The notes under the pieces are model-generated. The model was not told the DNA's origin. It saw nothing but the letters and a program-made list of their open reading frames with translations, and did not search any database. Shown here piece by piece: positions 4,955-55,048 of a stretch of 64,000 nt of DNA; within the stretch, counting starts at the first letter, position 1, and every line of letters begins with the position of its first letter. Made by a program: the position numbers and the translations under genes. This DNA is from an uncultured Solirubrobacteraceae bacterium (GTDB lineage: Bacteria > Actinomycetota > Thermoleophilia > Solirubrobacterales > Solirubrobacteraceae): contig CAWCBZ010000005.1 of the NCBI GenBank assembly GCA_963793935.1, positions 75,139-139,138 on the forward strand, written 5' to 3'.

Positions 4955-5029
4955 TGCAGTGACTGTAGGTGCTTGCGCCGATTCGCCGTCGCCGCGCGGT
5001 CACGCGCCGGAGCACCGTCCACGCTTGGC

Positions 5030-6148: not shown

Positions 6149-7653
6149 CTCGCCGCCTCGACCCGATCCTCGACCGACGCGTCGCGATCTGAGGACCGCG
6201 CGGAGAAGTGGCGGAGCTCCAGCACGATGCGAGCACCGCCCTCGGCCGATTCTTCGGCCCTCACGCTCCCGCCGTGCGCGTCGGCGATCGCGCGTACGAT
6301 CGCCAGCCCGAGCCCGGCTCCGCCAGTCGCGCGGTCGCGCGCGGCGTCGGTCCGTTGGAAGCGGTCGAAGACATGCTCGCGCTGGTCTGCGCGAATCCCC
6401 GGGCCGTCGTCCTCGACGACGAAACGCAGCCGGCCATCGCGGCCGACCTCGACGCGCATGCGCACGAGGCCGTGCTCGGCGGTCGTGTGCTCGATCGCAT
6501 TGGCGACGAGGTTGCGCAGAGCCTGCGTCAGTCGATCGGGGTCCGCGCGCAGCGTTCCCGAGGGAATTGGACCGAGCTCGAAACGCCGGCTCGCGAGCAG
6601 CATCACGCCGTCCCACAGCTCGCTCACGTAAGCCGGCAGGGCGATCGGCTCGACGCGCAGGAACTCCCGCTGTTCGCTGCGCGCCAGCAGCAGCAGGTCG
6701 TCCACCAGTCGGCCGATGCGTCCGATCTCGGCCTGCACCAGGCGCTCGACGCGGCGGACTTCCTCGGCGGACGGGTTGGCCTGGCGGGCCAGCACCTCGA
6801 GCTGACCGGCGACCACGGTCAGCGGAGTGCGCAGCTCGTGCGAGGCATCGGCGACGAAGGCGCGTTGCGCCGCGAACGCCTCGGTGAGTCGATCGAGCAT
6901 GTTGTTGAAGGACTCCGCGAGCACCTCGATCTCCGTTCCCTGCCCACCGGGATCTTCGATGCGCGGGTGCAGGTCACCCGCATCGACGCGCGCGGCGACC
7001 GAAGCCATGCGACGCAGCGGACGCGTCAGGCGGCTGCCGATCAGATAGGCGCCGAGCAGGGCGCCGGCGAGCGCGAGGATGCCGGCGAGGATGAACGCGC
7101 GCGCGACGCCCGCCTGCGCGTTGGCGACCGTCGCAAGCGGCTCGCCGGCCCCGACCGTGACGGTGCGCCCGCCGGGCAGGCGCACCGCGCGCTTGAGCAG
7201 CCGCAGGTCGCCAACGTCAGGAAGCGTGACCGTGCTGTAGCCGACCTGCGCGCTGAGCAGGCTCTGCGACAGCTTGTTCTCTTCGGCCTGGCGGGCGAAC
7301 GACTCTCCGTTGTCGGGCGCCGCCTGGCTGAACAGCTCGGGGCGGTTGGTGCTCGTGCGAGCGCCGGGCGTGAGCGTGAACAGCAGCCTCGAGGTGGCCG
7401 CGAACGGCTGGCTGCTCACGTAGCGGTCGGATGCGCCAACGATCTGCTTGGGCGTTTGCGGTCGCGCGAGCTGCAGGCTGCGCCCGAGCTCGCCGGCGTC
7501 GCCGCGGAGCTCGCTGTCGACCTGGGCGCGCAGCTTCACGCCGGTCCCGTGATAGACGGCCAGGAAGCTGATGCCCGTACAGACCAGCAGCACGAGCACG
7601 ACCCACGCCGCCAGCCGCCAGCGCAGCCCGCCGCGGGCAAGCAAGCCGCGCAT
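6145..7653 (-). CDS. Two-component sensor histidine kinase
   Basis: Two TM segments, a HAMP-like region, H-box HELRTPLTVVAGQLEVL, and N/G boxes of HATPase_c. Its start overlaps the response regulator stop by ATGA. Confidence 0.8.
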   Translation of the reverse strand: MRGLLARGGLRWRLAAWVVLVLLVCTGISFLAVYHGTGVKLRAQVDSELRGDAGELGRSLQLARPQTPKQIVGASDRYVSSQPFAATSRLLFTLTPGARTSTNRPELFSQAAPDNGESFARQAEENKLSQSLLSAQVGYSTVTLPDVGDLRLLKRAVRLPGGRTVTVGAGEPLATVANAQAGVARAFILAGILALAGALLGAYLIGSRLTRPLRRMASVAARVDAGDLHPRIEDPGGQGTEIEVLAESFNNMLDRLTEAFAAQRAFVADASHELRTPLTVVAGQLEVLARQANPSAEEVRRVERLVQAEIGRIGRLVDDLLLLARSEQREFLRVEPIALPAYVSELWDGVMLLASRRFELGPIPSGTLRADPDRLTQALRNLVANAIEHTTAEHGLVRMRVEVGRDGRLRFVVEDDGPGIRADQREHVFDRFQRTDAARDRATGGAGLGLAIVRAIADAHGGSVRAEESAEGGARIVLELRHFSARSSDRDASVEDRVEAAS

Positions 7654-31388: not shown

Positions 31389-31800
31389 ATGGGATTCGAC
31401 CAGTACCACGAGCCACCGGACGAGCTGCCCGAGCAGACGCGCACGTTCGCGCGCCTGTGCTCGTCGCTGACCGAGGAGGCCGAAGCGATCGGCTGGTACG
31501 AGCAGCGCCTGGCGATCGAGCGCGACCCCGAAGCCAAGGCGGTCATGTCCGACGCGGTCGGCGAGGAGTACAAGCACTTCAGCATGGACCTCGAGTTCCT
31601 TCTGCGGCGCACGCCGAAGTGGCGCGCAGATCGCCCAGGGCGTGCTGTTTCAGCCCGGCGACATCGTCGAGCACGGCGAGGCTGCCGAGGCCGGCGCCGA
31701 CGACGACGGCGACGAGGGCTCAGCCGCGGCGGCGGCACCGGCTCCCGCCGCGGCGGGCGGCTCGCTGAGCATCGGCAGCCTGCTTGGGGAGGGGCTATGA
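31389..31800 (+). CDS. Encapsulated ferritin-like cargo protein (EncFtn/Flp), interrupted by a 1-nt frameshift near 31626
   Basis: N-terminal 80 aa contain EAIGWYEQRLAIERDPEAKAVMSDAVGEEYKHFSMDLEFLLRRTPKW, the EncFtn metal-binding helices. The C-terminal cargo-loading peptide ...GSLSIGSLLGEGL* is encoded in the +1 frame and ends with TGA overlapping the encapsulin ATG (ATGA). Confidence 0.65.
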
Positions 31801-32612
31801 GCCATCTGCTGCGCGAGCACGCGCCGATCACCGACGACGGCTGGAAGCTGATCGACGAGGAGGCGCGCGAGCGCCTGCTGCCGGGGCTGGCCAGCCGGCG
31901 CCTGGTGGACTTCTCCGGGCCGCACGGCTGGGAGCACTCGGCGACGAACCTGGGACGCGTCGAGCGCGCGAACGTGAGCGAGCAGAAAGGCGTCGAGGCC
32001 AACCGCCGTGTCGTGCTGGCGCTGGTCGAGCTGCGCTCGCGCTTCACGGTCTCGCGCGAGGAGCTGCGCGCGGGCGATCGCGGCGCCGAGGACGTCGACT
32101 TCGAGTCGCTCGATGCGGCCGCACAACGCATCGTCGACGCTGAGAACACGGCGGTCTTCCACGCCTGGCCGAAGGCCGGCATCGAGGGCATCACGGCAAG
32201 CTCGCCGCACAAGCCGATCGTGCGCGGCAAGACCTTCGAGGACTACCCGGGCTGCGTCGCGCGTGCGGTCGAGCTGCTGCTGCGCAACGGAATCGCCGGC
32301 CCCTACGGGCTGGCGCTGGGACGCGAGGACTACACCAGCGTGGTGGAAACGGCCGAGCACGGCGGCTACCCGCTGCTGGACCACCTGCGCAACATCATCA
32401 AGGGCCCGATCGTGTGGGCGCCGGGCGTCAGCGGCGCCGTCGTCGTGAGCATGCGCGGCGGCGACTTCGACTTCCAGTCCGGCCAGGACCTGTCGGTCGG
32501 CTACGAGTCCCACGACGCCGACTCTGTGTCGCTGTACATCGAGGAGTCCTACAGCTTCCGCGTGCTGACGCCCGAGGCGGCGGTGGCGATCGCGGCGCCG
32601 AAAGGACGCTAG
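31797..32612 (+). CDS. Family 1 encapsulin nanocompartment shell protein (linocin M18-like)
   Basis: MSHLLREHAPITDDGWKLIDEEA..., GPYGLALGREDYTSV, DHLRNII.GPIVWAP, RGGDFDF.SGQDLSVGYESHD track the HK97-fold encapsulin family along its whole length. 271 aa. Confidence 0.85.
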   Translation: MSHLLREHAPITDDGWKLIDEEARERLLPGLASRRLVDFSGPHGWEHSATNLGRVERANVSEQKGVEANRRVVLALVELRSRFTVSREELRAGDRGAEDVDFESLDAAAQRIVDAENTAVFHAWPKAGIEGITASSPHKPIVRGKTFEDYPGCVARAVELLLRNGIAGPYGLALGREDYTSVVETAEHGGYPLLDHLRNIIKGPIVWAPGVSGAVVVSMRGGDFDFQSGQDLSVGYESHDADSVSLYIEESYSFRVLTPEAAVAIAAPKGR

Positions 32613-36044: not shown

Positions 36045-36905
36045 CTAAGGGCGACGGCCGGTCGGCGTCTCAGCTGCGCTCGCTCGCGCCGGTCCGGCGC
36101 GTTCGATCGCCGCGCTGACCTCGGCGCCGAGCATCAGCGCGACGTTGGTCAGCCACAGCCACACGAGCAGGATGATCGCTGCGGCGAAGGAGCCGTAGGT
36201 GACGTTGAAGCTCTTGAAGTTGGCGAGGTACGTAGAGAATGCCGCCGAGGCGGCGAGCCACAGCGCCACGCCGACGAGCGCGCCCGGCGCCATCCAGCGA
36301 AAGCCGCGATGGCGCACGTCGGGCGTGACGTAGTAGATGAAGCAGAACACCAGCAGAGCGCTGACCAGCGCGCCCGGCCAGCGCGCGATGCGCCAGACTG
36401 ACGCCGCGCTGGAGCCGAGCACTTCGTCGACGACGTCGCCGCCGGCGAACATCAGCACGATGGTCACGACCACCAGCGCCATCAGCACGAACGTGGAGCC
36501 GATGTCGATGGCCTTGCGCCGCAAGAAGCTGCGCCCGCCGGTGGCGCCGAACACGACGTTGAGCGCGCGCCGCGCTGCCTCGAGGTAGCCGGTCGCGCCA
36601 TACAGCGCCGCGGCGACGGCGAGAATCAGCCCGGCCGTGGCGGTGCCCTTGCTTTTCAGCGCCGCGCGCACGGCCTCATTCAGCGGCGCCAGCGTCACCG
36701 CGGGCACGACTTCGCGCAGGTGCCTCACGATCGCTTCGTAGGTGTCCGGAAACTGGCCGAGCAGGCCGAGCAGCGACACGCCCAGCAGCAGCGTCGGAAA
36801 CAGCGACATCAGCGCGTAATAGGTGAGCGCAGCGGCGTGGTGTGTGCCCTGGTCGTCGTAAAAGGACACGACCGAGCGCTTGGCGACCTGCCAGGTGCGG
36901 TTCAC
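36045..36905 (-). CDS. YihY/BrkB family inner membrane protein
   Basis: Conserved start (AAALTYYALMSLFP), 6 TM, approx. 286 aa. Confidence 0.7.
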   Translation of the reverse strand: MNRTWQVAKRSVVSFYDDQGTHHAAALTYYALMSLFPTLLLGVSLLGLLGQFPDTYEAIVRHLREVVPAVTLAPLNEAVRAALKSKGTATAGLILAVAAALYGATGYLEAARRALNVVFGATGGRSFLRRKAIDIGSTFVLMALVVVTIVLMFAGGDVVDEVLGSSAASVWRIARWPGALVSALLVFCFIYYVTPDVRHRGFRWMAPGALVGVALWLAASAAFSTYLANFKSFNVTYGSFAAAIILLVWLWLTNVALMLGAEVSAAIERAGPARASAAETPTGRRP

Positions 36906-37028
36906 CGCCGCAACCTACCTGCCGGTGACCCCGTGTCACGCTCGCCGGAAGGCCCTGACCGGCAAAGGCACGAGTGGCTCGCATCCGTCCAAGAGCTGAA
37001 GGCTCGTGGGTGCGGGTAGTTAGGTCGG

Positions 37029-37901
37029 GTGACGACGGCACCGGCACAGAGCGTCGCGCCGTCTCGTTGGCCGCGCCCCACCGAGCGATCGCAGCGCTGG
37101 TCGGCTCGCTATGCCTTGGTCGCGTTGATCGTCGGCGCAGTGGCCTCGTCGGTGGTCGTCTGGACGCTCAGATGGATCGGCATCGACGTCCCGCGCGGTG
37201 TCAGCGGCCTGTTCGTGGAGATCGCTCTGCTCTGCACGCTCGTGCCGCTTTACCGCTCGGGCAGGCTGCGACCGGTCGACCTCGGACTGCGCCGCGTGCC
37301 GCCGGCGCGTTCTGTGGGCTATGCCGTTCTCGGCCTGTTCGCGTATGGGTGGTCGAGCCGCCTGTGGAGCTCAGCGGTGCATCCGCCGCCGATCCACGGC
37401 ACCTTCGCCGGCATCGCCGATCAGAGCACGGCCGTGATCGCATTGACGGGCCTGGTCGCCGTGGCCGGCGCTCCGATCGTCGAGGAGGTCTTCTTCCGCG
37501 GCTTTCTCTACCGCAGCCTGCGAAACCGCATGCACATCCTGCCCGCCTGCCTGGTCGTCGGCGCGGTGTTCGGAATCGGCCACACGCAGTACCCGCTGCT
37601 CGTGCGTCCGGTGCTCGCCGGGTTCGGCGTGATCACCTGTCTGATGTACGAGCGCACGGGCTCGCTGCTTCCGGGGATCGCGATGCACTCCTTGATCGAC
37701 TCGAGCGGCTTCGAGTACGCATTGACCGGGCGCGTCAACATCGTCTTCGAGGCCTTCGCGCTGCTCGCGCTGGCGATGCTGCTGCTCGGCTTCTTCAAAA
37801 CGATCGGCCGGGCGCACACGCCGGAATCGCTGCCGAACAAGTCGGGGCTGCAACGGATGCGCGCGCGGCGGGCTCACTCTGAGACAGGCGCTGGAGGCTG
37901 A
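37029..37901 (+). CDS. CPBP family intramembrane glutamic endopeptidase (CAAX protease-like)
   Basis: Motif 1 EEVFFRG, motif 2 FGIGH, motif 3 H in last helix. Polytopic. Confidence 0.7.
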   Translation: MTTAPAQSVAPSRWPRPTERSQRWSARYALVALIVGAVASSVVVWTLRWIGIDVPRGVSGLFVEIALLCTLVPLYRSGRLRPVDLGLRRVPPARSVGYAVLGLFAYGWSSRLWSSAVHPPPIHGTFAGIADQSTAVIALTGLVAVAGAPIVEEVFFRGFLYRSLRNRMHILPACLVVGAVFGIGHTQYPLLVRPVLAGFGVITCLMYERTGSLLPGIAMHSLIDSSGFEYALTGRVNIVFEAFALLALAMLLLGFFKTIGRAHTPESLPNKSGLQRMRARRAHSETGAGG

Positions 37902-38009
37902 GCGACGCGCTTTTGTTGGGAGGCGTAGAGTTCGAGCGACCCGTTTTCACTCGACATCCGGAATAGCTCTTACCGCGGCCGACCGTACCTTGCTGAGAGG
38001 ATTCTGAAA

Positions 38010-38615
38010 ATGCCTTCATCGCCGGCTCCCGCACCTGCACCTCCACCGGCCTTTGCGTGGGATGGGCTCGGCCAGTTCAAGGCAGGAGGCCGATTTCTCG
38101 ATGGCTATCCCTCAGACGTGCGCACCTTCTACTCGCCGGTGGACAACGTCCATCAAGTGCTCGTCTCGCTGCTGGCATCGACGCAGAAGTCGATCGTGCT
38201 GAACATGTACGGCTACGACGACTCAGACCTCAACGACATCATTCTCGAAAAGCTCGAAGACGACCATGTGTATGTGCAGATGAGCCTGGACAAGTCTCAG
38301 GCGAGCGGGAAACGTGAGCGGAGCTTGCTGGCGAAGTGGAAGAACGACGCCGCCGGCAACTCGATCGCGATCGGGCACTCGAGCAAAGGCGCGATCTCGC
38401 ACATGAAGATTCTGATCGTCGATGGCGTTTACACGGTGCGCGGATCGACCAACTGGTCGCTCGGTGGCGAGCAGGATCAGGACAACGAGCTGACGATCCA
38501 CAACAACGCCGTCATCGCCGCCGAGACGCGAGCGGAGCTCGACCGCAATCATGACGAAATGCTCAAGCAGATGGCCAAGGCCAGGTCGACTGGCCCCCCG
38601 GCGGGGAAACAATGA
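38010..38615 (+). CDS. Phospholipase D-like (single HKD) domain protein, Nuc-like
   Basis: HKD motif SHMKILIVDG....GSTNWS. One PLD domain of approx. 170 aa, implying a homodimeric Nuc/BfiI-type fold. Lower GC than flanks. Stop overlaps the next gene's ATG. Confidence 0.65.
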   Translation: MPSSPAPAPAPPPAFAWDGLGQFKAGGRFLDGYPSDVRTFYSPVDNVHQVLVSLLASTQKSIVLNMYGYDDSDLNDIILEKLEDDHVYVQMSLDKSQASGKRERSLLAKWKNDAAGNSIAIGHSSKGAISHMKILIVDGVYTVRGSTNWSLGGEQDQDNELTIHNNAVIAAETRAELDRNHDEMLKQMAKARSTGPPAGKQ

Positions 38616-40098
38616 GCGGCGAGCCTGACCTGTCACTCAAGCGACTGAACGACATCAAGCACATCGTCGTGCTGATGATGGAGAACCGATCCTTCGACCA
38701 GATGCTCGGCTATCTCAAGCGGGACGGAATGCCCGACGTGCGCGGGCTCGACGGCACGGAGTCGAACCCCGACGCGCAAGATACGGAGCACGCGGTGTTC
38801 GAATGGAGCGCCGAAGACACGGTGTTCCACCCCCTGCAAGATCCGACCGGCAAGATCCTCGACCCCTGCCATTCCAAGGGATGCGTCGCCGAGCAGCTGG
38901 CCGATGGCAACCGCGGCTTCATCAAGAACTTCATCGCGACGCGCACGGACAAGGACGGAAACGCGGTGAGCATCCCCGAGGAGTACCACGCCCTGCCGAT
39001 GGGCCACTACGGGTCACAGCACCTTCCGATGTATGACTTCCTCGCGCGCAACTACACCGTCTGCGACGCCTGGCACAGCTCGGTCCCAGGCGACACTTGG
39101 CCGAATCGGCTCTTCGCGCTCGCCGGTCGCGAGGGGCCCAAGGCGCTTGCGCCGCTGATGGAGCGCATCAAGGAGGAGTTCAAACACGAATTGCACCTGC
39201 TGCAGAACGCACCGATCTACGACGTCGCGACCTTTCCCGACACCTGGCTGCCGACCAGTGGCGCTGGTACTCCCATGATCCCGCGACCCTGCGCGCAGCC
39301 GACGATCGCTATCGCCAGTTCGGCGAGCGCGGGAACTTCGCGTTCTTCGACCGACGGGCGGTAAGCATTCTCACGGAACTGCTGGAGAGCCCGATCGTCA
39401 GCCCCGACAGCTTCCTCGACGACGCGGCCAGCGGCAGGCTGCGCGAGGTCTCGTGGATCGATCCCAATTTCATCGACCTGAAAGTCCTCGAGACGGACTC
39501 CAACGACGACCACCCACCCTCGGACGTACGTGCCGGGCAATCGCTGGTCTTGGAGGTCTATGAGGCGCTGAGGAACAGTCGCGATTGGCAGGACACGCTG
39601 CTGGCGATCGTCTATGACGAGCACGGTGGGTTCTACGACCACGTCGCGCCGCCGGCGCTGGGGTTCGAGGACAGCTCCGGTTATCAGACCTTCGGCGTGC
39701 GCGTGCCCGCCCTGCTGGTAGGGCCACGCGTGCCAGCAGGTGTCTGTCACACGCAGTTCGATCACACGAGCCTGATCAAGACGATCTTGCTGCGCTTTGC
39801 CGAGCAGCCCCAGGAGGCGATCGCCCAGATGGGTGCACGCGTCGCGCATGCCGAGCATCTCGGCGTTGTGCTGGGCGACGAGCCGCGTGCGGCGATCCCT
39901 GACAACGAGGACGCTCGCAGCGCGATCAGCGAATGGCGGGCGAGGACCAAGGCGGCGAGGCGAGGCACGCCGCCCGATCAGAACCCGTTGGCGTGGGACG
40001 GGGCCGGCGGCGCCGTCGGCCTGCACGAGTTCCAGGAAGACTTTGCTCGGTTTGCACTTTCGATGCGCAGGGCGGGGCTTCCCTATGGAGAGCCTTGA
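38612..40098 (+). pseudogene. Phosphoesterase family protein (non-haemolytic phospholipase C / acid phosphatase, PF04185-like) with one frameshift near 39250
   Basis: HIVVLMMENRSFDQMLG, PNRLFALAG (frame 1) and then WIDPNFID..DDHPPSDVRAGQ, IVYDEHGGFYDHV, GVRVPALLVGP (frame 2). Total approx. 495 aa, as expected for the family. Confidence 0.65.
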
Positions 40099-40120
40099 TC
40101 CCGCGTAAGCGCTGTCAGCA

Positions 40121-40531
40121 CTAAGCCCCTTTCTTGGGGTCGCCTCCGATCTGCTCAGCGGCTCTCGACGCTGCCTGCTGGGCGTCGTCTTGCTTGTCTC
40201 CGGGAACGAACGCCTGAACAGCGGCGAGCTTGGCGTGCGCTTCACTGGCGTCTTGCGCGAGACCCTTGCTTTGATCGGTGCCGATCTTGATGCCGAGGTA
40301 GGCGCCAACCACAGCCGAGATCACGCCGAAAGCAGCAGTCGTCAACGGGATCATCGTGTTGGCGTCCTTGCCACTGTCGATGAAGGCCATCGTCGAGATC
40401 GCGAGCGCCGTGATCGCGAACACGCCGAACAGCACCGCGACCAGGCCGCCGACGCTTTGGATGCTCTCGGCCGTTGGCAAGACTTTGTTATCTCCCGATC
40501 CGGCCTGGTGCTGCCCCACTTGAGTCGCCAT
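40121..40531 (-). CDS. Hypothetical small membrane protein
   Basis: Two hydrophobic helices flanked by charged regions. No homology recognised. Confidence 0.35.
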   Translation of the reverse strand: MATQVGQHQAGSGDNKVLPTAESIQSVGGLVAVLFGVFAITALAISTMAFIDSGKDANTMIPLTTAAFGVISAVVGAYLGIKIGTDQSKGLAQDASEAHAKLAAVQAFVPGDKQDDAQQAASRAAEQIGGDPKKGA

Positions 40532-40740
40532 CCGAGTCCTCCCTTGCGCGCAGTTTGCGCATATTGGGGAAACGTTCGACTGAGCTTACTCATTCCGACT
40601 GAGCGGCGGATTCTGCCAGCTCGGTATATCGGCTGGTCGGTTTGTGTGAGACGCTGTTAAGCAGTTACCGACACGGCTCGTCGAGTGTCGACTAGGCGGC
40701 GTTCGCTTCTGGGATCTCGACCTGCTCAAGCCATTCCGGC

Positions 40741-40823
40741 CTAGCAAAGCTTCAGGGAGGGCGAAGTGCGCCAGCTTTTGCGTGCGTGCTTGCGCGGCGC
40801 CGACGTCTACTGCGGCACTGAGG
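40741..40823. repeat. Direct repeat copy A (approx. 85 bp, about 88% identical to 41478-41562)
   Basis: ctagcaaagcttcagggagggcgaagtgcgccagc...ggcgccgacgtctactgcggcactgagg recurs 737 bp downstream with a few substitutions/indels. Confidence 0.7.
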
Positions 40824-41090
40824 CAGCGGGCCTGCCGGGGGCGGCTCAAGCGCCACCTCTACTCAGAGAGCAATCCGAGGTCGCGTCTGGGGCACGCAGC
40901 CTCAGTTCAAGTGGTCGCTATCACGGTGCGGGGTCTCCGTCGTCACCATCCGGCTCGTCTCCGATCCGACCATAAGGTCCAATGCGGAACGCTGGATCGT
41001 TGGGTCCACTCGGCGGCCCGCCCCCGCCCCGCGTCATGTAGAAGCCGATGACAACTACCACGACGACCGCTATGCCGATGATCGCGTCTT

Positions 41091-41374
41091 TTATCGCCAC
41101 CAAGTTTTGCGCATCCGTCGGCCGACAGGTTTTTCAGGCACGTTGACGAGGCGCTCGTTGAAGGTCCAGCGCAGGCCTTCAGCCGTGCCGACGTAAAGAC
41201 CCGGCTTGCCGTAGAGCAGGCGCTTGTGTTCGAGCAGGCCGTCGCGAACCAGCAGCGATAGGCAGGCGTAGGCCCAGTTGCGGCCCATGCCAAGCGGAAC
41301 ATCACGTGCTCGGCAGAGGCAGCTCCGATCCGTACCAGCCAGCTGACGATCTGGGCATCGCGGTCTGTTTGCAT
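41091..41374 (-). pseudogene. Remnant of a winged-helix DNA-binding protein gene (two frames)
   Basis: MQTDRDAQIVSWLVRIGAASAEHVMFRL (one frame) followed by ...AYACLSLLVRDGLLEHKRLLYGKPGLYVGTAEGLRW (another frame) together look like a wHTH/MarR-type recognition domain split by a frameshift. Low GC. Confidence 0.3.
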
Positions 41375-41477
41375 GGCGCCTCCTTGCGGCGATCGACTTG
41401 AGTACTTCCGACTAGATGTCGATCAGAGGCAGCTATAGACCCCCTGACAATTTCGAGCTAGCGCAAGCCAACCGCAG

Positions 41478-41562
41478 CTAGCAAGGCTTCAGGGAGGGCG
41501 CGAAGCGCGCCAGCTCTCACGTGCTTGCTTGCTCGGCGCCGACGTCTACTGCGGCACTGAGG
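41478..41562. repeat. Direct repeat copy B
   Basis: ctagcaaggcttcagggagggcgcgaagcgcgccagc...ggcgccgacgtctactgcggcactgagg. Indels break any common reading frame, so likely non-coding. Confidence 0.7.
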
Positions 41563-41665
41563 GGAGCAGAGATGCCGAGCGGGCTCAGGCGCTGCTGCCC
41601 CTAAGAGCTTGCTGTTGGCCCACCATGAGCCAGCGGGGTTGAGCTGAGTGCTTACATAGCCCCCG

Positions 41666-42331
41666 TTAAGGAGCCGTCACGGTGCGCGGACCGTCGCCTT
41701 CCAGCCAGTAAATGCGCCCAGGAACGGCAGCCAACGAGCGATAGTCGATCGTTGCAGAGCTCGCAACGTGCTGAGGATCGCGCGAGCCGGCACGGAGCTC
41801 GAAGACATCGTTGACGGTCGGGGTCGCTTCTGCACCGGCCGTGATCCAAGCCACTGTGCCCTTTGGGGTAAGCACCAGGTTCCTTACCCCGCCCTTGGGC
41901 GATGGAAACTGGCCAGCGGCCGCGCATTCCCGCGATTTTCCCTCCTGAACATTCACTCGGCAAACCTTCCAAACATCGACTGGAGAGGTCCCGCCGATCT
42001 CCAACGCGTAGGCCGCATAACGCCCTGCGACGCTCAAGTGGCTAAGGGTGACTTCAAGGTCGGGCCCCGGCATTTCATCGCCCAAGCGGGTGAATCTTCC
42101 CGATGGCCGCCACAAGGCGAACGTGCTCTGGTAGGGAATTTCCGCGACGTGGCGCTGTCGGGCTTGCACGACGCGCAATTGCTGCGTTTCGGCCAGGGTG
42201 CGACACCGATACTTCCGGCAGGAAGGCGCGACACGGCGCGCACTCGCTGCCGCGAGAGGCCACGCGAGCCCGAGCGGCACCACCAGCGCAACCGCCCCAA
42301 AGCGAAGCATTCGCAGGACGCTATAGCTCAC
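41666..42331 (-). CDS. Secreted hypothetical protein, translationally coupled to upstream giant gene
   Basis: Signal peptide MLRFGAVALVVPLGLAWPLAAASA. Start codon overlaps the stop of 42331-45954. No known domain. Confidence 0.5.
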   Translation of the reverse strand: MSYSVLRMLRFGAVALVVPLGLAWPLAAASARRVAPSCRKYRCRTLAETQQLRVVQARQRHVAEIPYQSTFALWRPSGRFTRLGDEMPGPDLEVTLSHLSVAGRYAAYALEIGGTSPVDVWKVCRVNVQEGKSRECAAAGQFPSPKGGVRNLVLTPKGTVAWITAGAEATPTVNDVFELRAGSRDPQHVASSATIDYRSLAAVPGRIYWLEGDGPRTVTAP

Positions 42332-45300
42332 TACGTCGTCTTGTGTCGATAAACATAAAAGATTGGCCTCGGCATATTACCGGGGTTGAGCAACCCTGAA
42401 TCTTGATGCCCACTCGACTTCGCTTCGCCTCTCATCTCGTAATAGTAGAAGCTAGTGATCTGACGGCTCTGACGCGTCAGCTGGTGCGCGCCATCCTCGA
42501 CATAGGCGTGCATGATCCGCAGTGCGTTCGTGCTGCTTGCAGCCGGCTTATTTACGTATTTGTTTGAGAAAATCACGCCTTGCTCGCTCAGCCAGATGTC
42601 TGGCAGCTTACGAGCTTTGGTCACTTTATCGATCTCCTTGCGGAATGCCTTAAAGCGACTCCACCATTTGCCTGGTTCCTTCCATTCCTTCGTGCCCGCG
42701 CGAAGGCCGTCCGTGTAGGTGTGCCAGGCCCACCGTGCTGCCTGCGGATGGCTCATCCCAAGCAGGTATTTATGGAAATATTTACCGCCCGTGGTCTTCC
42801 CATTGCCCGCTTCGGGCATCTTTGTATCAGAGAAGTCCCCGGCCGCCACGAGGCAGTTGTGGTTTTTCGGCGCACAGAGCGCGTCCAGCACCGCCCAGTA
42901 TTCTCCAGCTAGTTCAGCCTTTGTCAGTTCGCTCGTGGGTTGCGTGGGATTATTGGGCTCATTCCACGCGGTAAATAGGTTGACATTTTTCAAAACCGGG
43001 TTGGTCAAGAATTCAGTGACGGCCGTGGTGTATTCAGCGCGTTCCGGTGGAGTGCTGCAGCTCTTCGTCGCCGATTCCCCGACTTTTGAGTGCGCGATCC
43101 ACGACCCATCGCATCGCTCAAAGGAGATCAGCGGCTGACCGCCGCCTGGAAGTGCGCGGACTTTTTCCACCCATTTTTCGACGTCTTTGAGCTCTTGTTC
43201 TTGTGCCGTACCCCCATGGGTGCCCGCATATACGATGTCAAACGGCACAGTGCGGCGGACACGTTTCACATGAAGGCTTTTGAAAGTACCCTTGCCGAAA
43301 TATTCGAAATGCGTCCCTTCAATGACATGGTTGTTGTCTGAGATGCCGTACTGCGCCGGCGCTAGGTCCGGAATGCTTTTTGCCACCAGCGGCGCGAATG
43401 AGCCTTCTCCTTCTTCTTCTTCTTCTTCTAGGTTCGCTTCGTTTTCCGGTTCTGGATCTTCTTCGCCGCAGTATTCAGTGGGTACATAACACGCTCCTTC
43501 TGCAACTTCTTCCTGGGCTTCGAATTCCGAGGAGCCTTCTTCTGCTTCGTCAGCTGGTTCAGTGTCGCTCGTGATTTCGCCGAGCGCGTTGTAACAGTAC
43601 GTCGTCGATCCGCCTTCTTCGCCCGGTGCGTCCGCCACGACGGTCTGCCCTACATCAGTTTCGGGGTTGCAAGTCGGGCTGGCTGGCGCTTCATAGGCGT
43701 ATGAGGTGATTTCGTCTTCGCTGCCTGGCGTGCTGACCGTGCCATTGACGATGCGCCGCGTAGACGTTACGCGGTCACTTTCGTCGTAGGCGATGATATA
43801 GGTCCCGCTAGGGTCGACGATTTTGTTGAGCAGGTCTTCGCTGGTGTATCCGTATTTCGTTTCGTGGCTTTCTGGACCGGTGACGGTCGTCAAACGCGCC
43901 GAGCCGTCGTACGTATAGTTCCATTCTTCGCCGTGAGCCCCGTTGATTTTCGTCACGTAGCCTGAGAAGGGGTCACGAGTCAGCGTCAGTTCGTTGCCGT
44001 GTGTGTCGCTCAAGCCCGTCAGGTGTTCGTACGCGTATGAGAGAGAGATCGTGTTGCCTTCCCCGCTTGGATCAACGATCTGTTCGGGGAAGCCGTCGTT
44101 GTCATACTTCCAATCGGTTTCAGTTTCTGGGTAGGTGACGGTCCGCGTGCCATTTTCATGTTCGATCAGCGTCGGCGGTTCTTCGCCGGTTGTCGTGAAC
44201 GCTTTGTCTCCCGCGCTTGGCGCCCCATCGGCGGACGGGTTTCGGTCGTAACGGCGATCGGAGCCATCGGGCTGTTGGACGATCGCCGAGCCGTCCCATC
44301 CGGTGTGGTAGAGGATGCCGTCTTCACCTGTGCTCAGCCGCCAAAGGTGCATCGCGCCACCGGCGATCTGATCGTACTGGCTGTTGTAGTAGCGGACCAA
44401 TTCCGTTTCGTAACCTTCGGTTTCGTAGCGCATTTCGGGATCGTTCACAAAGAGGTTGCCGTTGACGACGTTGACGCCCATCGTCGCGCCGTAGCCGATT
44501 GAGTCTTCGATCAGCGTCTGGTCAGGCTGGCTACCGAGATGCGGCTCATAGAGCACTTCGACAAACGGTTCCGGTGTTTCTTCGGGGCTGTCGGTCTGCT
44601 CGAAGGCGTAGTAAGTCGGCGTCGTCTCATTAGCGGCCTTCAGTAGAACCCCGTGATTGGAGCTGGGATTTCTGATCCATTCTTCGACTTGCGGCGTGAA
44701 GCCCCAACTGACAAATTCTCCTTCGTTGGCAGGGCTGACGGTTTGTTGGCCGATGGGCGTCGAGCCAAAGTCGCCGCCGGCGCTGGACCAGGGGGTTTCG
44801 TAGGCCGACTGGTTCCACGTGACATAGTCGGTGAAGTCGTGCGATAGGGCGAAGGCCTGGATATCCAGGGGTTCTTCGCCGACGTGCCAGTCCTCCCATA
44901 GCGCGAGGCGCGAGCGAAGGACGTTGGCGTCCGTCGGAACGCACGTCATATCGAAGTGGGTGACAGTGCGCGCGACGTGTTGGGGCGATTCAGAGTCAGC
45001 GCCAATGAACAGCGGGCCGCCGCATTCCTGAGCGTTGGCCAAGTCTTGACTGATGATCGCGCAGTCTTCGCCTTCGGTGTAATAGACTTCAGGGTCGATC
45101 ACAACCGGAAAGACTCGCTTGGGGCTGCTCAGCCATGCCTTGTCGAGTACTAGAGAGAGAGTTGAGCCGTCGCTGCTCAATGTGTAGTGCACGGGACGGC
45201 TTGATCTAAAGGAACGGTTCGGCGAGGAGTCGGTGACGGTAGGAGGAGCCAGCCAGTACGCCCTCCGCCCCGCCGTGTTCGCGATGTCCACCCTTCCGCT

Positions 45301-45954
45301 GGGACGCAGCGTCGCATGAAGTCCGGGACTCAGAGAGAGCGCGTAGCGATACGTCGTCGGGGCCGCGCGGCTTGCCAAGGAGAGCGTCTCGCGGACGCTG
45401 TCGGGCGACGAGACGTAGGAGACGCTGACGCCCGGCAGAGCGCCGGCATAGGAGCGGCGGCTGCCCACCGCAGAACCTTCTGCCTTGCTGGCGCCTTCCA
45501 GTGCAAAGGAGAAACGCTGGCCGCTCGGCCCAACCTCGATCGGGCCGCTGCCCAGCGAGGCGGGCAGGCTGATCGGAACAGGGGTAGCGGCCGGGTGCCA
45601 CTTGCCGTCGGCCGAGCGTTGAAGGCGGTTTTCGATCGCATGCCAGACACCGTTGACCCGATAGTTGATCGGATGGGAATAGATGTGCTGAGAACGGGTT
45701 CCGTCGGCTAGCTGGTAGGTGTCTGAGGTAGCTGTCCTCAAGCTTGGGATCTCTCGCGGAGCCGCTTCGCCCTGCCGATCGGGGCGGGCTGCCGTCGCCG
45801 TGTTGCCCGAGGCTGGCAGCGCGCCGAAGGCCAGCAAGCCAAGCACCGCGCAGGCGAGCAGGTAAGCGGTCGGATGCAGGCGGCGGTCCGCGGGTCGCTC
45901 GACCTGCCGCCTCAAGCGACACCAACGCGCGCAACTACGCAGCGACGTACGCAT
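42331..45954 (-). CDS. Large secreted Rhs/WapA-like YD-repeat protein with C-terminal clan GH-A glycoside-hydrolase-like domain
   Basis: 1207 aa. N-terminal signal/TM. ENRLQR segment resembling the DNRLRE-domain N-terminus of Gram-positive Rhs proteins. YD repeats (YDRNPSADG, YTYDGSARLTTVTG, YGYTSEDLLNKIVDPSG, IAYDESDRVTS). Acidic (E)6 linker. C-terminal domain has FTAWNEPNN (acid/base) and IWLSEQG (nucleophile) spaced like a GH5-type TIM barrel. Codon usage is A/T-richer than the genome. Confidence 0.65.
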   Translation of the reverse strand: MRTSLRSCARWCRLRRQVERPADRRLHPTAYLLACAVLGLLAFGALPASGNTATAARPDRQGEAAPREIPSLRTATSDTYQLADGTRSQHIYSHPINYRVNGVWHAIENRLQRSADGKWHPAATPVPISLPASLGSGPIEVGPSGQRFSFALEGASKAEGSAVGSRRSYAGALPGVSVSYVSSPDSVRETLSLASRAAPTTYRYALSLSPGLHATLRPSGRVDIANTAGRRAYWLAPPTVTDSSPNRSFRSSRPVHYTLSSDGSTLSLVLDKAWLSSPKRVFPVVIDPEVYYTEGEDCAIISQDLANAQECGGPLFIGADSESPQHVARTVTHFDMTCVPTDANVLRSRLALWEDWHVGEEPLDIQAFALSHDFTDYVTWNQSAYETPWSSAGGDFGSTPIGQQTVSPANEGEFVSWGFTPQVEEWIRNPSSNHGVLLKAANETTPTYYAFEQTDSPEETPEPFVEVLYEPHLGSQPDQTLIEDSIGYGATMGVNVVNGNLFVNDPEMRYETEGYETELVRYYNSQYDQIAGGAMHLWRLSTGEDGILYHTGWDGSAIVQQPDGSDRRYDRNPSADGAPSAGDKAFTTTGEEPPTLIEHENGTRTVTYPETETDWKYDNDGFPEQIVDPSGEGNTISLSYAYEHLTGLSDTHGNELTLTRDPFSGYVTKINGAHGEEWNYTYDGSARLTTVTGPESHETKYGYTSEDLLNKIVDPSGTYIIAYDESDRVTSTRRIVNGTVSTPGSEDEITSYAYEAPASPTCNPETDVGQTVVADAPGEEGGSTTYCYNALGEITSDTEPADEAEEGSSEFEAQEEVAEGACYVPTEYCGEEDPEPENEANLEEEEEEGEGSFAPLVAKSIPDLAPAQYGISDNNHVIEGTHFEYFGKGTFKSLHVKRVRRTVPFDIVYAGTHGGTAQEQELKDVEKWVEKVRALPGGGQPLISFERCDGSWIAHSKVGESATKSCSTPPERAEYTTAVTEFLTNPVLKNVNLFTAWNEPNNPTQPTSELTKAELAGEYWAVLDALCAPKNHNCLVAAGDFSDTKMPEAGNGKTTGGKYFHKYLLGMSHPQAARWAWHTYTDGLRAGTKEWKEPGKWWSRFKAFRKEIDKVTKARKLPDIWLSEQGVIFSNKYVNKPAASSTNALRIMHAYVEDGAHQLTRQSRQITSFYYYEMRGEAKSSGHQDSGLLNPGNMPRPIFYVYRHKTT

Positions 45955-46280
45955 ACCCAGCCTCCCTCATAAGTGCGTGTGGAGCCGCAGCTCCTATGTC
46001 CCCCGGTGCTTCGCGGAGAGCCCTGTCCGAGCTAATGCGCAGGTCTATTGCAGATTCGCTTGCCTGTCAAGACCCAAATAACGGGACGTCGACATTCATA
46101 CGACGCGATGTCGATATTTGGGCTGCGCGCGCCAGGTTGAATGAGCGCGGAGCGGGTACACAGAAGTGGCACCCGGCCGAAGCACGGTCGCGCTAACGCA
46201 ACTGAGAGGCCATACCGGACAGGGCATGAGGCCTCCGGCTCGGCCGGGTGCCAGTGCAAAGCCTAACCGGCACTTCTTGA

Positions 46281-46355
46281 GGGTGAGCGACGGGACTTGA
46301 ACCCGCGACCGCCTGGACCACAACCAGGAGCTCTACCAACTGAGCTACGCCCACC
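46281..46355 (-). tRNA. tRNA-His (GTG)
   Basis: Reverse complement GGTGGGCGTAGCTCAGTTGGTAGAGCTCCTGGTTGTGGTCCAGGCGGTCGCGGGTTCAAGTCCCGTCGCTCACCC folds as a cloverleaf. Anticodon loop TTGTGGT, encoded G-1, T-loop GGTTCAAGTCC. Confidence 0.85.
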
Positions 46356-46383
46356 ACGGGCCCCGCAGTCTAGCGCCGGGCGC

Positions 46384-47124
46384 TCAGCCCCTGCGGGCGA
46401 TCTGCAACGCACCGACCACGCCGTCGCCCCAGCTATCGAGCGCGCGCAGCGCGGCCTCGACGCGATCCTCGGTCACGTCCTGCCAGGCTGTCGCGGCGCC
46501 CGGAGCATCTGCGTCGGCGCCCGGCGCGCCGCCCTCGCGAAGCACGACCAAACCGCGCCCGATCAGCGAGTGCACGGCCGCCTCGCCGAGCGCCAACGAC
46601 TCGGCCGCTGAGGCGTCGCCGAGCCGCTGCGCCGCCATGCGCCACGCCTGCGCCAGCGTGACCGGCGCGCCGTCGACGATGCCCAGCAGCTCCAGCGCGA
46701 GCGAGTCGGCGAGCAGCCGCGGGTCGGCCGCTGCGCCGCCGGTCGGCTGCGCCGCGGTTTCAGCAGCCCTGCCCTCCCCCTCCGCATCCGCGCCGCTCGC
46801 CGCGACGGGCGCATCCGTTGGAGCCGCAGCCTGCGCGCCCGCGCCCGCGCTCGTGCCCTGCCTGACGGCCGCGAGCACGCGCTCGGTGACGTTCTCGCTG
46901 CGCCGCTGCGCGTTGCGCCAGCCGCGGCCCATCGCCAGCTCGGGCATCGACAGCTTGGGGCCCTCGAGCACGGTGATGGTGGCTTCGTTGGAGTTCCACT
47001 TCTGTTCGCCCTCTTCGAACCACTCCTCTTTGACCCACGGCACGAGGATCGCGGCGACCTGCGCTTCGCTCTGGTTGAAGCGGCAGACCGTGTGCGGGAA
47101 CTTGCGCAGCTCGAGGTGATACAC
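46384..47124 (-). CDS. Hypothetical protein
   Basis: 246-aa ORF with good codon bias. N-terminal 80 aa non-repetitive (MYHLELRKFPHTVCRFNQSEAQVAAILVPWVKEEWFEEGEQKW), Ala-rich C-terminal half. No family recognised. Confidence 0.45.
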   Translation of the reverse strand: MYHLELRKFPHTVCRFNQSEAQVAAILVPWVKEEWFEEGEQKWNSNEATITVLEGPKLSMPELAMGRGWRNAQRRSENVTERVLAAVRQGTSAGAGAQAAAPTDAPVAASGADAEGEGRAAETAAQPTGGAAADPRLLADSLALELLGIVDGAPVTLAQAWRMAAQRLGDASAAESLALGEAAVHSLIGRGLVVLREGGAPGADADAPGAATAWQDVTEDRVEAALRALDSWGDGVVGALQIARRG

Positions 47125-53281: not shown

Positions 53282-53532
53282 GTCGCGAGATCATCTCAGC
53301 GCCCGCGCGCGAGCGGGCTTAAGTACTCGCGGCGCGCCCGGCATCAATGCCAAGCGCGCCGCAAGCTGATCCAGGACCATCCGACGACTCCGGGCAACCC
53401 CGCGCGGGGGTTTGGGGCTGCGTGAAGGAGTCGGCGGATTGGATCCCGTCCCCATTGGGGCCTCTTGCCGGGGTATAGCGAGACCCCGCCTGTTTGCTTA
53501 CCCGGTCCCGCATCGACGAAACGGCCAAATGA

Positions 53533-53606
53533 TGCCCCCGGCTGGACTCGAACCAGCAACCCCCGGCTTAGAAGGCCGGTGCTCTATCCAGTTGAGCTAC
53601 GGGGGC
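53533..53606 (-). tRNA. tRNA-Arg (TCT)
   Basis: Reverse complement GCCCCCGTAGCTCAACTGGATAGAGCACCGGCCTTCTAAGCCGGGGGTTGCTGGTTCGAGTCCAGCCGGGGGCA. Anticodon loop CTTCTAA, T-loop GGTTCGAGTCC. Confidence 0.85.
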
Positions 53607-53712
53607 AAGGCGGTGGCCGGCGGGCCACGTTCGACGCCTGCGCACGCGCGCGCGAATGCATCGTGGCATGAACTTAGGCACGCTTGAGCGGAAACCTGTA
53701 AAAGTTGCACCC

Positions 53713-54543
53713 ATGAGCAGCGAGGAGGAGGACGACGGGCAGGATCTCACGCGCAAGCAGCGCCGCGAGCAGGCGCGCTCGGAGCGCAAAGCGCTGGAGC
53801 AGGCCGAGGCCGCCAACCAGCAGCGGCGCAAGCGCCTGATCCAGCTCGGCTCGGTCGCCGGCGTCGTCGTCGTGATCATCGTCGTGATCGTGGCCGCCAC
53901 GAGTGGTGGCGGCAACAGCACGACGGTCCCGACCACCGGAAACCCCAAGACTGCCCCGCCGGTCAAAAAGGTCATCGCCGAGATCGGCGGCATTCCGCAA
54001 AAAGGAAACGTCCTGGGCAGCGCCAAAGCGCCCGCGACGCTCGTCTACTACGGCGATCTGGAGTGCCCGATCTGCAAGGACTTCACGCTTGGCGCGCTGC
54101 CGACGCTGATCCAGAAGTACGTGCGCGCGGGCAAGCTGCGCATCGAATACCGCAACCTGGAGACGGCGACGCGCGAACCGGAAACGTTCAAGACGCAGCA
54201 GGTCGCGGCGCTGGCGGCGGGCAAGCAGAACAAGGGCTGGTACTACATCGAGCTGTTCTACAACCAGCAGGGCGAAGAGGACAGCGGATACGTGACCGAG
54301 CAGTACCTGCGCACGCTGGCCGAACAGACGCCCGGGCTGAACCTGACCGCATGGACGGCGGCGCGCAACGATCCGGAATTCACGAACACGATCACCAGCG
54401 ACGCGCAGGCCGCCAACACCGCCGGCTTCACCGGCACGCCGTCGTTCCAGATCGGCAAGACCGGCGGCCCGGTGCAGAAGCTCGAATACTCGTCGCTGAC
54501 CGATCCGTCGGGCTTCGAATCGGCGATCGACAAGCTGATCTAG
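53713..54543 (+). CDS. Membrane-anchored DsbA-family thiol:disulfide oxidoreductase
   Basis: Acidic N-terminus, one TM (VAGVVVVIIVVIVAA), thioredoxin active site ECPICK (CxxC). An alternative start is at 53656. Confidence 0.7.
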   Translation: MSSEEEDDGQDLTRKQRREQARSERKALEQAEAANQQRRKRLIQLGSVAGVVVVIIVVIVAATSGGGNSTTVPTTGNPKTAPPVKKVIAEIGGIPQKGNVLGSAKAPATLVYYGDLECPICKDFTLGALPTLIQKYVRAGKLRIEYRNLETATREPETFKTQQVAALAAGKQNKGWYYIELFYNQQGEEDSGYVTEQYLRTLAEQTPGLNLTAWTAARNDPEFTNTITSDAQAANTAGFTGTPSFQIGKTGGPVQKLEYSSLTDPSGFESAIDKLI

Positions 54544-54556
54544 AGCGGGTCGGGCG

Positions 54557-55048
54557 ATGAGCGCGCGCACGCTGAGGATCACGATGATCGTCCTCACGGT
54601 GCTCGGCCTGATCGTCGCGAGCTACCTCACCTACATCCACTACGCCGGAATCAAACCGCTGTGTGGGACGAACGGCGGCGGCTGCGAGATCGTGCAGACG
54701 TCGGTCTACTCCAAGCTGGCGGGCATACCGGTCGCGCTGATCGGGCTGATCGGCTACATCACGATCCTCGGCTCGCTGCTCGTGCCCGAGAGCGAGACGT
54801 CGCGCTTTGCCACCGTCGCCTTCACGGTGATCGGCTTCGGCTTCAGCGCCTATCTGACCTGCCGCGAGCTGTTCTCGATTCATCACATCTGCGAGTACTG
54901 CGTGTCCAGCGCGATCATCGTGACGATCCTCATGTGTCTGTCGATCTGGCGCTTCTTGCGCGGCGACGGCGCGCTGCGAGAGCAGCACCAGGACGCCGAG
55001 CTCGGCCACTCAGAGACCGCGGCGCCGCTCGGCACCGCCGGTCCCTGA
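54557..55048 (+). CDS. Vitamin K epoxide reductase (VKOR) family protein
   Basis: Loop cysteines CGTNGGGC and active-site CEYC in a 4-5 TM protein. Adjacent to DsbA, as in actinobacterial DsbB-less systems. Confidence 0.75.
   Translation: MSARTLRITMIVLTVLGLIVASYLTYIHYAGIKPLCGTNGGGCEIVQTSVYSKLAGIPVALIGLIGYITILGSLLVPESETSRFATVAFTVIGFGFSAYLTCRELFSIHHICEYCVSSAIIVTILMCLSIWRFLRGDGALREQHQDAELGHSETAAPLGTAGP

Follow-up and report, generated by a model that had tools for sequence, protein, structure and literature searches.

Is a very large protein that resembles a secreted Rhs/WapA toxin at its front and a glycoside hydrolase (GH) at its end the effector of a polymorphic toxin system, with the small secreted protein encoded directly after it providing immunity, or do the two proteins serve another purpose? 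The question is raised by a gene pair in a 64,000-nucleotide (nt) stretch of DNA, referred to as the window in the following, from an uncultured Solirubrobacteraceae bacterium (contig CAWCBZ010000005.1), for which an earlier reading of the sequence, the original prediction, had proposed a cell-wall-targeting toxin/immunity pair. We found that the C-terminal domain of the large protein (the giant) belongs, albeit distantly, to clan GH-A and has invariant predicted catalytic residues, that its N-terminal scaffold is of Rhs/WapA ancestry, and that among its relatives the C-terminal payload is exchanged together with the downstream gene, which in the window encodes the small protein (the partner). 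An effector function is the reading towards which we lean, if only slightly. The pair consists of the following open reading frames (ORFs; aa, amino acids).

42331..45954, minus strand: giant gene, 1207 aa, ATG start codon, with GAGGGAGG located 7 nt upstream
45805..45954, minus strand: aa 1-50 of the giant, with the start codon, the Shine-Dalgarno sequence GAGGGAGG upstream of it and the signal peptide; assigned from the sequence, with the same type of N-terminus in all scaffold relatives
41666..42331, minus strand: partner gene of family S1, 221 aa, GTG start codon overlapping the TAG of the giant by 1 nt, signal peptide, CxxYRC pair

The two genes are directly linked, as had been claimed: the last base of the TAG stop codon of the giant is the first base of the GTG start codon of the partner (TAGTG), and the identical two products are called in an independent public assembly. 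According to our reading of the sequence, the giant starts with a Sec-type signal peptide with an Arg-rich n-region and the h-region AYLLACAVLGLLAFGALPA, which is followed by VRELPxLRTAxSDT at the N-terminus of all scaffold classes described below, and it is thus likely to be exported. The Cys residues of the mature giant are paired. The partner possesses a cleavable signal peptide of its own, MLRFGAVALVVPLGLAWPLAAASA/RR (AASA/RR), and its homologues with complete starts show the same feature, in agreement with the original prediction.

The last part of the giant had been predicted to form a clan GH-A barrel with two catalytic glutamates, one in FTAWNEPNN (aa 994-1002) and one in IWLSEQG (aa 1120-1126). 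The corresponding features are located as follows.

42334..43398, minus strand: aa 853-1207, clan GH-A (beta/alpha)8 domain, PslG/GH39-like and GH128-like
42958..42960, minus strand: codon of E999 (WNEPN), predicted general acid/base; invariant, aligned with E165 of PslG
42583..42585, minus strand: codon of E1124 (IWLSEQG), predicted nucleophile; invariant, aligned with E276 of PslG

Taken alone, the last 355 aa of the giant have no match in Pfam, NCBIfam or, using phmmer, among PDB sequences; specifically, no GH family of Pfam is matched by the domain at E ≤ 1, and neither PF11790 nor PF00150 at E ≤ 0.1. A word-indexed homologue search with the domain returned 4 relatives only, whereas the exhaustive profile search with HMMER retrieved 714, of which 291 had an E-value ≤ 1e-10 and many were 1000-1900 aa long and terminated in the domain. 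An alignment of 31 relatives revealed that E999 and E1124, which are separated by 125 residues, are invariant together with H1078, Y1080, W1121 and the Cys pair C1027/C1034, from which we conclude that the motifs are not due to chance. Indeed, AlphaFold2 modelled the domain as a barrel of alternating strands and helices when supplied with the 31-sequence alignment (pLDDT 90.6, pTM 0.91), but reached a pLDDT of only 41.7 with a 5-sequence alignment. In profile comparisons against the PDB, the domain matched PslG (3e-5) and the GH128 curdlanase CBM6E (8j3x; 8e-5). The profile alignment placed WNEPN of the giant on WNEPN of PslG (construct index 139, corresponding to E165) and IWLSEQG on IWSTEWG (construct index 250, corresponding to E276), i.e. 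on residues E165 and E276 of PslG (PMC4928890). Both the predicted barrel and its catalytic glutamates, which in clan GH-A are an acid/base in an Asn-Glu-Pro motif after strand 4 and a nucleophile after strand 7, are thereby supported, and the domain is predicted to be active as a retaining glycosidase.

The identity to the nearest structures amounts to only 12-16%. Although PF11790 was reached by 10 of the 31 relatives (best E-value 1.2e-9) and PF00150 by two, none of the existing GH families (GH5, PF00150; GH128, PF11790; GH39) was matched above its curated threshold. The domain belongs to clan GH-A only distantly and falls under the threshold of every existing family. Its closest structure is PslG of Pseudomonas aeruginosa, a GH39-like Psl endoglycosidase (4zn2, 5bx9; 12-14% identity to the domain of the giant). 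The gene for PslG belongs to the psl biosynthesis operon, and the enzyme has a membrane anchor of its own as well as a beta-sandwich at its C-terminus, while the barrel of the giant forms the last module of a putatively secreted scaffold of 1207 aa in a mobile island. The GH128 enzyme 8j3x belongs to the same clan and is linked to the family by the profile match and by the relatives that reach PF11790, but it ranked only 18th in the Foldseek search with the domain of the giant, which itself has no direct PF11790 match.

When the GH domains were placed in a neighbour-joining tree, those at the C-terminus of giants grouped into a single clade, separate from stand-alone and N-terminal paralogues. 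In a taxon scan that was biased by the pattern used for it, [FY][TEA]AWNEPN, most members of the family came from Solirubrobacterales (Solirubrobacter, Conexibacter, Paraconexibacter, Svornostia) and a few from myxobacteria and acidobacteria. Tandem paralogues with an N-terminal GH domain followed by long unassigned regions occur at locus L020 (1318-4875, 4763-7234, 9791-12067) and, as two genes, at L012, which is indicative of a lineage-specific expansion in Solirubrobacterales-like genomes. The genes next to stand-alone paralogues share no common theme; one paralogue adjoins a UDP-glucose dehydrogenase gene. A further stand-alone copy is located at L031 (CAMCUD010000002.1) in a metagenome-assembled genome labelled Bifidobacterium breve, which could be due to mis-binning or to transfer.

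The scaffold in front of the barrel was investigated with a profile built from aa 1-852 of the giant and the counterparts in related loci, which retrieved 46 proteins. It is composed of the following regions (GC3, GC content at third codon positions).

45025..45777, minus strand: aa 60-310, conserved scaffold region including ENRLQR; relatives of the GH, protease and Rhs types are 35-55% identical here
44554..45015, minus strand: aa 314-467, DNRLRE / CBM96-like / Disaggr_repeat domain (NF033679, PF06848)
43555..44187, minus strand: aa 590-800, short YD/RHS-repeat tract (PF05593 at aa 682-718, TIGR01643 at aa 667-701)
43399..43554, minus strand: aa 801-852, acidic linker, assigned by composition; GC3 0.33

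The conserved region at aa 60-310 has no match in Pfam or NCBIfam. The domain at aa 314-467 matches NF033679 (DNRLRE) of NCBIfam with an E-value of 2.3e-15 and 57 bits at a cut-off of 34, while the Pfam model PF06848 scores 27.5 bits on the giant, which is under its gathering cut-off, and PF24517 (CBM96) is matched by scaffold relatives. The DNRLRE domain shares about 30% identity with CBM96, an alginate-binding module, and is also present in polysaccharide lyases (PMC9971899); in the giant, it probably forms a glycan- or surface-binding beta-sandwich. The original prediction of a DNRLRE-like N-terminal region is therefore correct with respect to the presence of the domain, but not with respect to the motif it relied on, because ENRLQR (aa 108-113) is located outside the domain and resembles the DNRLRE motif by coincidence.

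Matches to RHS/YD models are confined to about aa 667-718, in line with the short repeat tract that had been noticed before, and the tract closes with the conserved module RRIVNGT...GSEDEITSY...C...TYCYNALGEIT. A profile of the relatives over this region matches the Rhs toxins Tre23 and Tse5 as well as teneurin. The tract of the giant, about 210 aa long, corresponds in the alignment to the initial third of the YD region in Rhs-type relatives of about 1570 aa, and the homology to these proteins stops at about aa 800, upstream of their core motif. The giant does not contain a complete YD shell (TEN_YD-shell), which comprises several hundred residues. As had been stated, the RHS core PxxxxDPxGL is also lacking: inspection of the translation of the giant revealed no P....DP.G[LMIVW], and the regular expression itself, which was run on the relatives only, was positive solely in some of the Rhs-type proteins (P0174, P0186, P0193, P0197). 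The original description of a Rhs/WapA-type scaffold that is not a textbook Rhs protein thus holds, as there is homology to Rhs proteins but neither shell nor core. On the basis of these alignments, the giant is the front half of a Rhs/WapA protein without cage and core, and it carries an exchangeable enzyme.

The closest known counterparts are Sec-dependent polymorphic Rhs toxins of Gram-positive bacteria such as WapA of Bacillus subtilis and WapA-CT1 of Streptococcus suis, which share the Sec signal, the DNRLRE domain and the YD/RHS repeats with the giant; in S. suis WapA, these are arranged in the order Sec signal, DNRLRE, DUF6531 and Rhs (PMC12704120), and DUF6531 is also found in relatives of the giant. 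As in WapA, the C-terminal end varies among otherwise similar proteins, and a small gene is located directly downstream. In contrast to WapA, the YD tract of the giant is too short to form a closed shell, the core is missing and nothing points to an autoproteolytic release. A further difference is the payload, a 355-aa enzyme with predicted disulfide bonds on an acidic linker rather than a small encapsulated nuclease or deaminase, and the partner itself carries a signal peptide. More distant similarity to the scaffold (21-25%) was detected in "DNRLRE domain-containing proteins" encoded on plasmids of Priestia and Paenibacillus, as well as in a RHS-core protein of Janibacter; the plasmid-borne proteins have small ORFs downstream, e.g. 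an ORF of 149 aa after one such gene of Priestia (5649 nt, about 1880 aa). The disaggregatase of Methanosarcina and related surface proteins (PMC2447325) likewise combine the DNRLRE/Disaggr_repeat domain with a polysaccharide-degrading module, but their catalytic module and architecture are different from those of the giant, and the Pfam match to the giant stays below the gathering score.

Next to the ancestry of the scaffold, the variation of what it carries is informative. The relatives of the scaffold can be classified according to their C-terminal ends.

GH type, about 1200 aa: 13 relatives, 40-58% identity to the giant over the full length
Protease type, ending in ...TAGHC...D...GxSGxPVYK...LHVHV: 12 relatives, 44-55% identity over the scaffold only
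Other ends: 3 relatives, 42-45% identity over the scaffold only
"RHS repeat-associated", about 1570 aa: 16 relatives, 28-39% identity (35-39% in 13 of the 16) from aa 1 to about aa 800 of the giant

In the protease type, TAGHC, D and GxSGxP are invariant, and the profile matches streptogrisin B at 1e-6, which identifies this end as a S1 protease. The Rhs-type proteins continue beyond the position that corresponds to aa 800 with about 650 more YD-shell residues, the core PINxSDPxGL in some of them, and short variable tips. The homology between the giant and the protease and other payload types breaks at aa 764-845. This is the acidic linker, in which 25 of 60 residues are D or E and which includes a small C822-C829 loop as well as the poly-Glu stretch that had been pointed out before (EEEEEE, aa 843-848). 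One protease-type protein (P0156) is 55% identical to the giant in its scaffold and hence nearer to it than most of the GH-type proteins. The acidic linker, as the breakpoints of the alignments show, is the site where one payload is replaced by another. Polymorphic toxin systems are understood here as by Zhang/Aravind and by Jamet & Nassif (PMC4436062), and two of their traits are present in this family: a conserved N-terminal scaffold is combined with alternative C-terminal domains, and the immediately downstream gene changes with the C-terminal domain. The assignment to a polymorphic family is thus confirmed as far as the exchange of payload and downstream gene is concerned.

The genes downstream of GH-type giants belong to three families, S1, S2 and S3, whose members carry signal peptides and between which no relationship was detected by hhalign. 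S1, the family of the partner, has a conserved CxxYRC pair and no match in Pfam, NCBIfam or the PDB, including profile comparisons with the latter; its members are 25-56% identical and are located directly downstream of GH giants at L002, L005, L032, L048 (with a 4-nt overlap) and L049/L050. Members of S2 (L007, L008, L011, L013, L018) and S3 (L003, L004) follow GH giants as adjacent or overlapping genes; neither family matches Pfam or NCBIfam, and the comparison of the S2 profile with the PDB gave noise only. The unit of GH domain and partner is also found behind other N-terminal regions, namely Ig-like domains at L032 and L008 and CBM96 plus PD40 at L009, from which we conclude that the partner goes with the enzyme and not with the scaffold. 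At L032, three S1 paralogues in tandem (4155-6373) follow a GH giant with an Ig-like domain (Big_3) instead of the YD scaffold. Consistent with the original prediction, the partner is a putatively secreted protein whose gene is coupled to that of the giant; its synteny with the GH domain extends to six or more independent loci. In the metagenome scan for S1, six of eight contigs break off immediately upstream of the S1 gene and are uninformative with respect to the linkage.

Protease ends are followed by a different family, consisting of lipoproteins of about 120 aa (lipobox LSAC or AVGC), in three of three loci examined. These genes directly follow protease-ending relatives.

L051:8432-8839: protease-linked lipoprotein
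L052:8678-9052: protease-linked lipoprotein
L053:8593-8952: protease-linked lipoprotein

The family is unannotated, has no Pfam match and is a candidate for a protease inhibitor. A resemblance to inhibitor family I78 was considered but dropped, as a Pfam search lent it no support even at E ≤ 10. Downstream of one Rhs-type relative, a RDD membrane protein is encoded.

The gene pair is located in a region with the signs of a mobile island. The GC content of the window is about 70% and dips to 57-63% at about 38000-46000, and the GC3 of the giant and partner genes is 0.64-0.75, compared to 0.86-0.92 in the flanking genes. The following features are relevant in this context.

46281..46354, minus strand: tRNA-His (GTG), immediately upstream of the gene for the giant; ARAGORN, Rfam tRNA 63.9 bits
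41461..41562: direct repeat of about 100 nt, copy 1 (repeat families D1, D2)
41150..41389, minus strand: frameshifted winged-helix-like small gene; tblastx, 59-68% identity in two frames
40724..40823: direct repeat of about 100 nt, copy 2 (repeat families D1, D2)

The tRNA-His gene is probably the integration site and one boundary of the low-GC island. No direct repeat of its 3' end (attR) was found within 36500-46400, so that the island is delimited on this side only. The two repeat copies are 80-90% identical at a spacing of 737-739 nt and bracket the winged-helix-like gene. An intact 91-aa homologue of this gene is located downstream of a Rhs-type relative (L054:10801-11076), and the gene in the window is probably what is left of the mobile element with which the gene pair arrived. 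Mobile-type genes are also encoded in the loci of the relatives (serine recombinase, Replic_Relax, integrase fragment, SSB, HTH_17). At L063 and L064, which carry relatives with other payloads, genes for SIR2_2, DUF4238 and TIR_2 are located beside Replic_Relax, SSB and HTH_17, indicating that these scaffold genes share their islands with genes of the defence type. The gene pair is located neither in a sugar-utilisation operon nor within an exopolysaccharide (EPS) or wall-biosynthesis cluster, and no transporter or regulator genes were found near it. The Rfam scan of the window detected only two tRNAs, and promoter- and terminator-like sites were not more frequent than in shuffled sequence.

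Other genes of the window are listed below.

38010..38615: PLD-like gene, preceding the split phosphoesterase gene
38612..39364 and 39097..40098, plus strand: PF04185 phosphoesterase (phospholipase C / acid phosphatase family), split into overlapping frames
53531..53607, minus strand: tRNA-Arg, preceding the DsbA and VKOR genes
53656..54543, plus strand: DsbA-like thioredoxin
54557..55048, plus strand: VKOR, adjacent to the DsbA-like gene
31389..32612, plus strand: 407-aa cargo/shell fusion encapsulin with an EncFtn-like part (aa 5-79) and a Linocin_M18 shell (aa 137-387)

The split of the PF04185 gene reflects either a pseudogene with a frameshift or an error in the assembly. DsbA and VKOR represent the actinobacterial pair for disulfide formation outside the cytoplasm, and their presence is consistent with disulfide-bonded secreted proteins.

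Which function do these observations suggest? We lean slightly towards a horizontally acquired, Sec-secreted and cage-less polymorphic effector, derived from Rhs/WapA proteins in Solirubrobacterales, whose GH domain would act on a glycan in the envelope or matrix of other cells and whose partner would neutralise the enzyme in the producer. According to this model, the giant would be exported via its signal peptide. Its N-terminal 800 aa, comprising the N-terminal region, the DNRLRE/CBM96-like domain and the YD tract, would represent a retained Rhs/WapA front end that binds to surfaces or glycans. The YD cage and the autoproteolytic core would have been lost, and since both are missing, the acidic linker would tether rather than encapsulate the payload, a folded, disulfide-bonded GH-A retaining glycosidase of 355 aa. 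The enzyme could cleave a surface glycan of neighbouring cells, such as a secondary cell-wall polymer, a capsule or an exopolysaccharide, and because this would happen from the outside, no import step would be needed. The translationally coupled partner may bind and block the GH domain in the producer, either as an immunity protein or as an inhibitor. Effector/immunity pairs that act outside the cytoplasm are known from the secretion systems of type VI (T6SS; Tge/Tgi, Tae/Tai) and type VII (T7SS; TelC/TipC), and their immunity proteins are usually anchored or periplasmic. The likeness is one of logic only, i.e. an envelope enzyme is neutralised outside the cytoplasm by an adjacently encoded protein; the enzymes of these pairs have lysozyme-like, amidase or phosphatase folds and depend on other secretion machines, and homology to them was not detected.

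Several observations weigh against an effector function. The cell-wall target of the original prediction received no support. The nearest characterised enzymes act on exopolysaccharide (PslG) and beta-1,3-glucan (GH128), and clan GH-A is not known to include a peptidoglycan hydrolase, so that a lethal target in the wall is not obvious. The GH family includes many stand-alone and N-terminal paralogues without such partners, which indicates that this class of enzymes is not intrinsically self-toxic. The partner has no lipobox and no membrane or lipid anchor, which leaves its retention at a monoderm surface unexplained. In addition, GH domains linked to S3 nest among those linked to S1 in the neighbour-joining tree, and unrelated partner families on nested GH domains would be unusual for co-evolving immunity proteins, unless S1, S2 and S3 share a fold. 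Finally, S1 homologues without an adjacent giant occur at L001, L055 (next to an insertion sequence fragment) and L062. A partner that is widely found apart from the giant had been named as a finding that would speak against a toxin/immunity pair, and at least three such cases touch on this point; yet orphan immunity genes are common in polymorphic toxin systems.

The strongest alternative, which we nevertheless regard as unlikely, is that the giant is a surface-tethered or secreted carbohydrate-active enzyme (CAZyme) for feeding on foreign polysaccharide, e.g. fungal or bacterial beta-1,3-glucan or further glycans of the soil, with the DNRLRE/CBM96-like domain and the YD tract as binding modules and the partner as an accessory protein, i.e. 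a substrate binder, folding helper or regulator. The significant profile match to the curdlanase CBM6E and the PF11790 matches of the relatives would fit such a function, as would the similarity of the DNRLRE domain to CBM96 and its occurrence in polysaccharide lyases; the expansion of the GH family in Solirubrobacterales, with modular and tandem paralogues, is typical of CAZymes, and protease payloads are equally compatible with nutrition. However, the scaffold shows homology to genuine Rhs proteins that possess a core and short toxin tips, the payload and the downstream gene are exchanged together, and both tandem arrays of partners and orphan partners exist. Moreover, the context is that of a mobile island instead of a sugar-utilisation operon with transporter and regulator genes, and a dedicated, tightly coupled secreted partner would be unusual for a CAZyme involved in feeding.

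Considerably less probable is a self-directed remodelling enzyme of the matrix or envelope, similar to PslG or to the Methanosarcina disaggregatase, which would trim or disperse the exopolysaccharide or a wall polymer of the producer itself under the control of the partner as a regulator. PslG as the closest structure, the Disaggr_repeat/DNRLRE domain common to disaggregatase-type surface proteins and the paralogue next to the UDP-glucose dehydrogenase gene are in favour of this idea, but the giant gene lies outside any EPS or wall-biosynthesis cluster, its foreign GC3, the adjacent tRNA and the remnants of mobile elements do not fit, and the swapping of the scaffold to proteases and Rhs toxin tips would be unexpected for a housekeeping enzyme. 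That the giant is a decaying remnant, in which a truncated Rhs gene was accidentally fused to a glycosidase gene, without function and followed by a chance ORF, is very improbable: two neighbouring island genes are frameshifted and the Rhs shell and core are missing, but this explanation is contradicted by the conservation of the architecture of about 1200 aa, with intact catalytic residues, in at least 13 relatives (40-58% identity) and of the partner among its homologues (36-56% identity), and both ORFs are intact in the window and in the second assembly.

The individual elements of the favoured effector, i.e. the WapA/Rhs scaffold, the clan GH-A barrel and the downstream cognate gene, are of known kinds. 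Their combination, in which a truncated scaffold without cage and core carries swappable whole extracellular enzymes with secreted partners, was not described in the literature that we searched. It is possible, and we would stop just short of calling it probable, that Solirubrobacterales possess a hitherto undescribed class of "cage-less" Rhs/WapA derivatives, in which the front end for surface binding is retained and an acidic linker presents interchangeable, complete lytic enzymes for use outside the cell. These would comprise a new PslG-like GH-A family, streptogrisin-like proteases and others, each accompanied by the gene of a secreted or lipid-anchored inhibitor, in mobile islands.

If this is true, the giant and its partner would represent a polymorphic toxin system whose attack on the envelope comes from the outside and requires no translocation. 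Rhs/WapA scaffolds would then be re-usable for the presentation of large, folded and exchangeable enzymes, which would widen the definition of polymorphic toxins in monoderm bacteria. The GH domain would be the founding member of a new family of glycoside hydrolases that has a protein as its inhibitor. This uncharacterised family of clan GH-A, with 714 public relatives, almost none of which are annotated, would have a probable substrate in the envelope or exopolysaccharide. As many as three families of candidate protein inhibitors, unrelated to each other, would be associated with it; protein inhibitors of a TIM-barrel glycosidase are rare in bacteria. The enzyme/inhibitor pairs could serve as tools for biofilms or cell walls. 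For the Solirubrobacterales, a poorly studied order of soil bacteria, the gene pair would provide a first handle on interbacterial competition.

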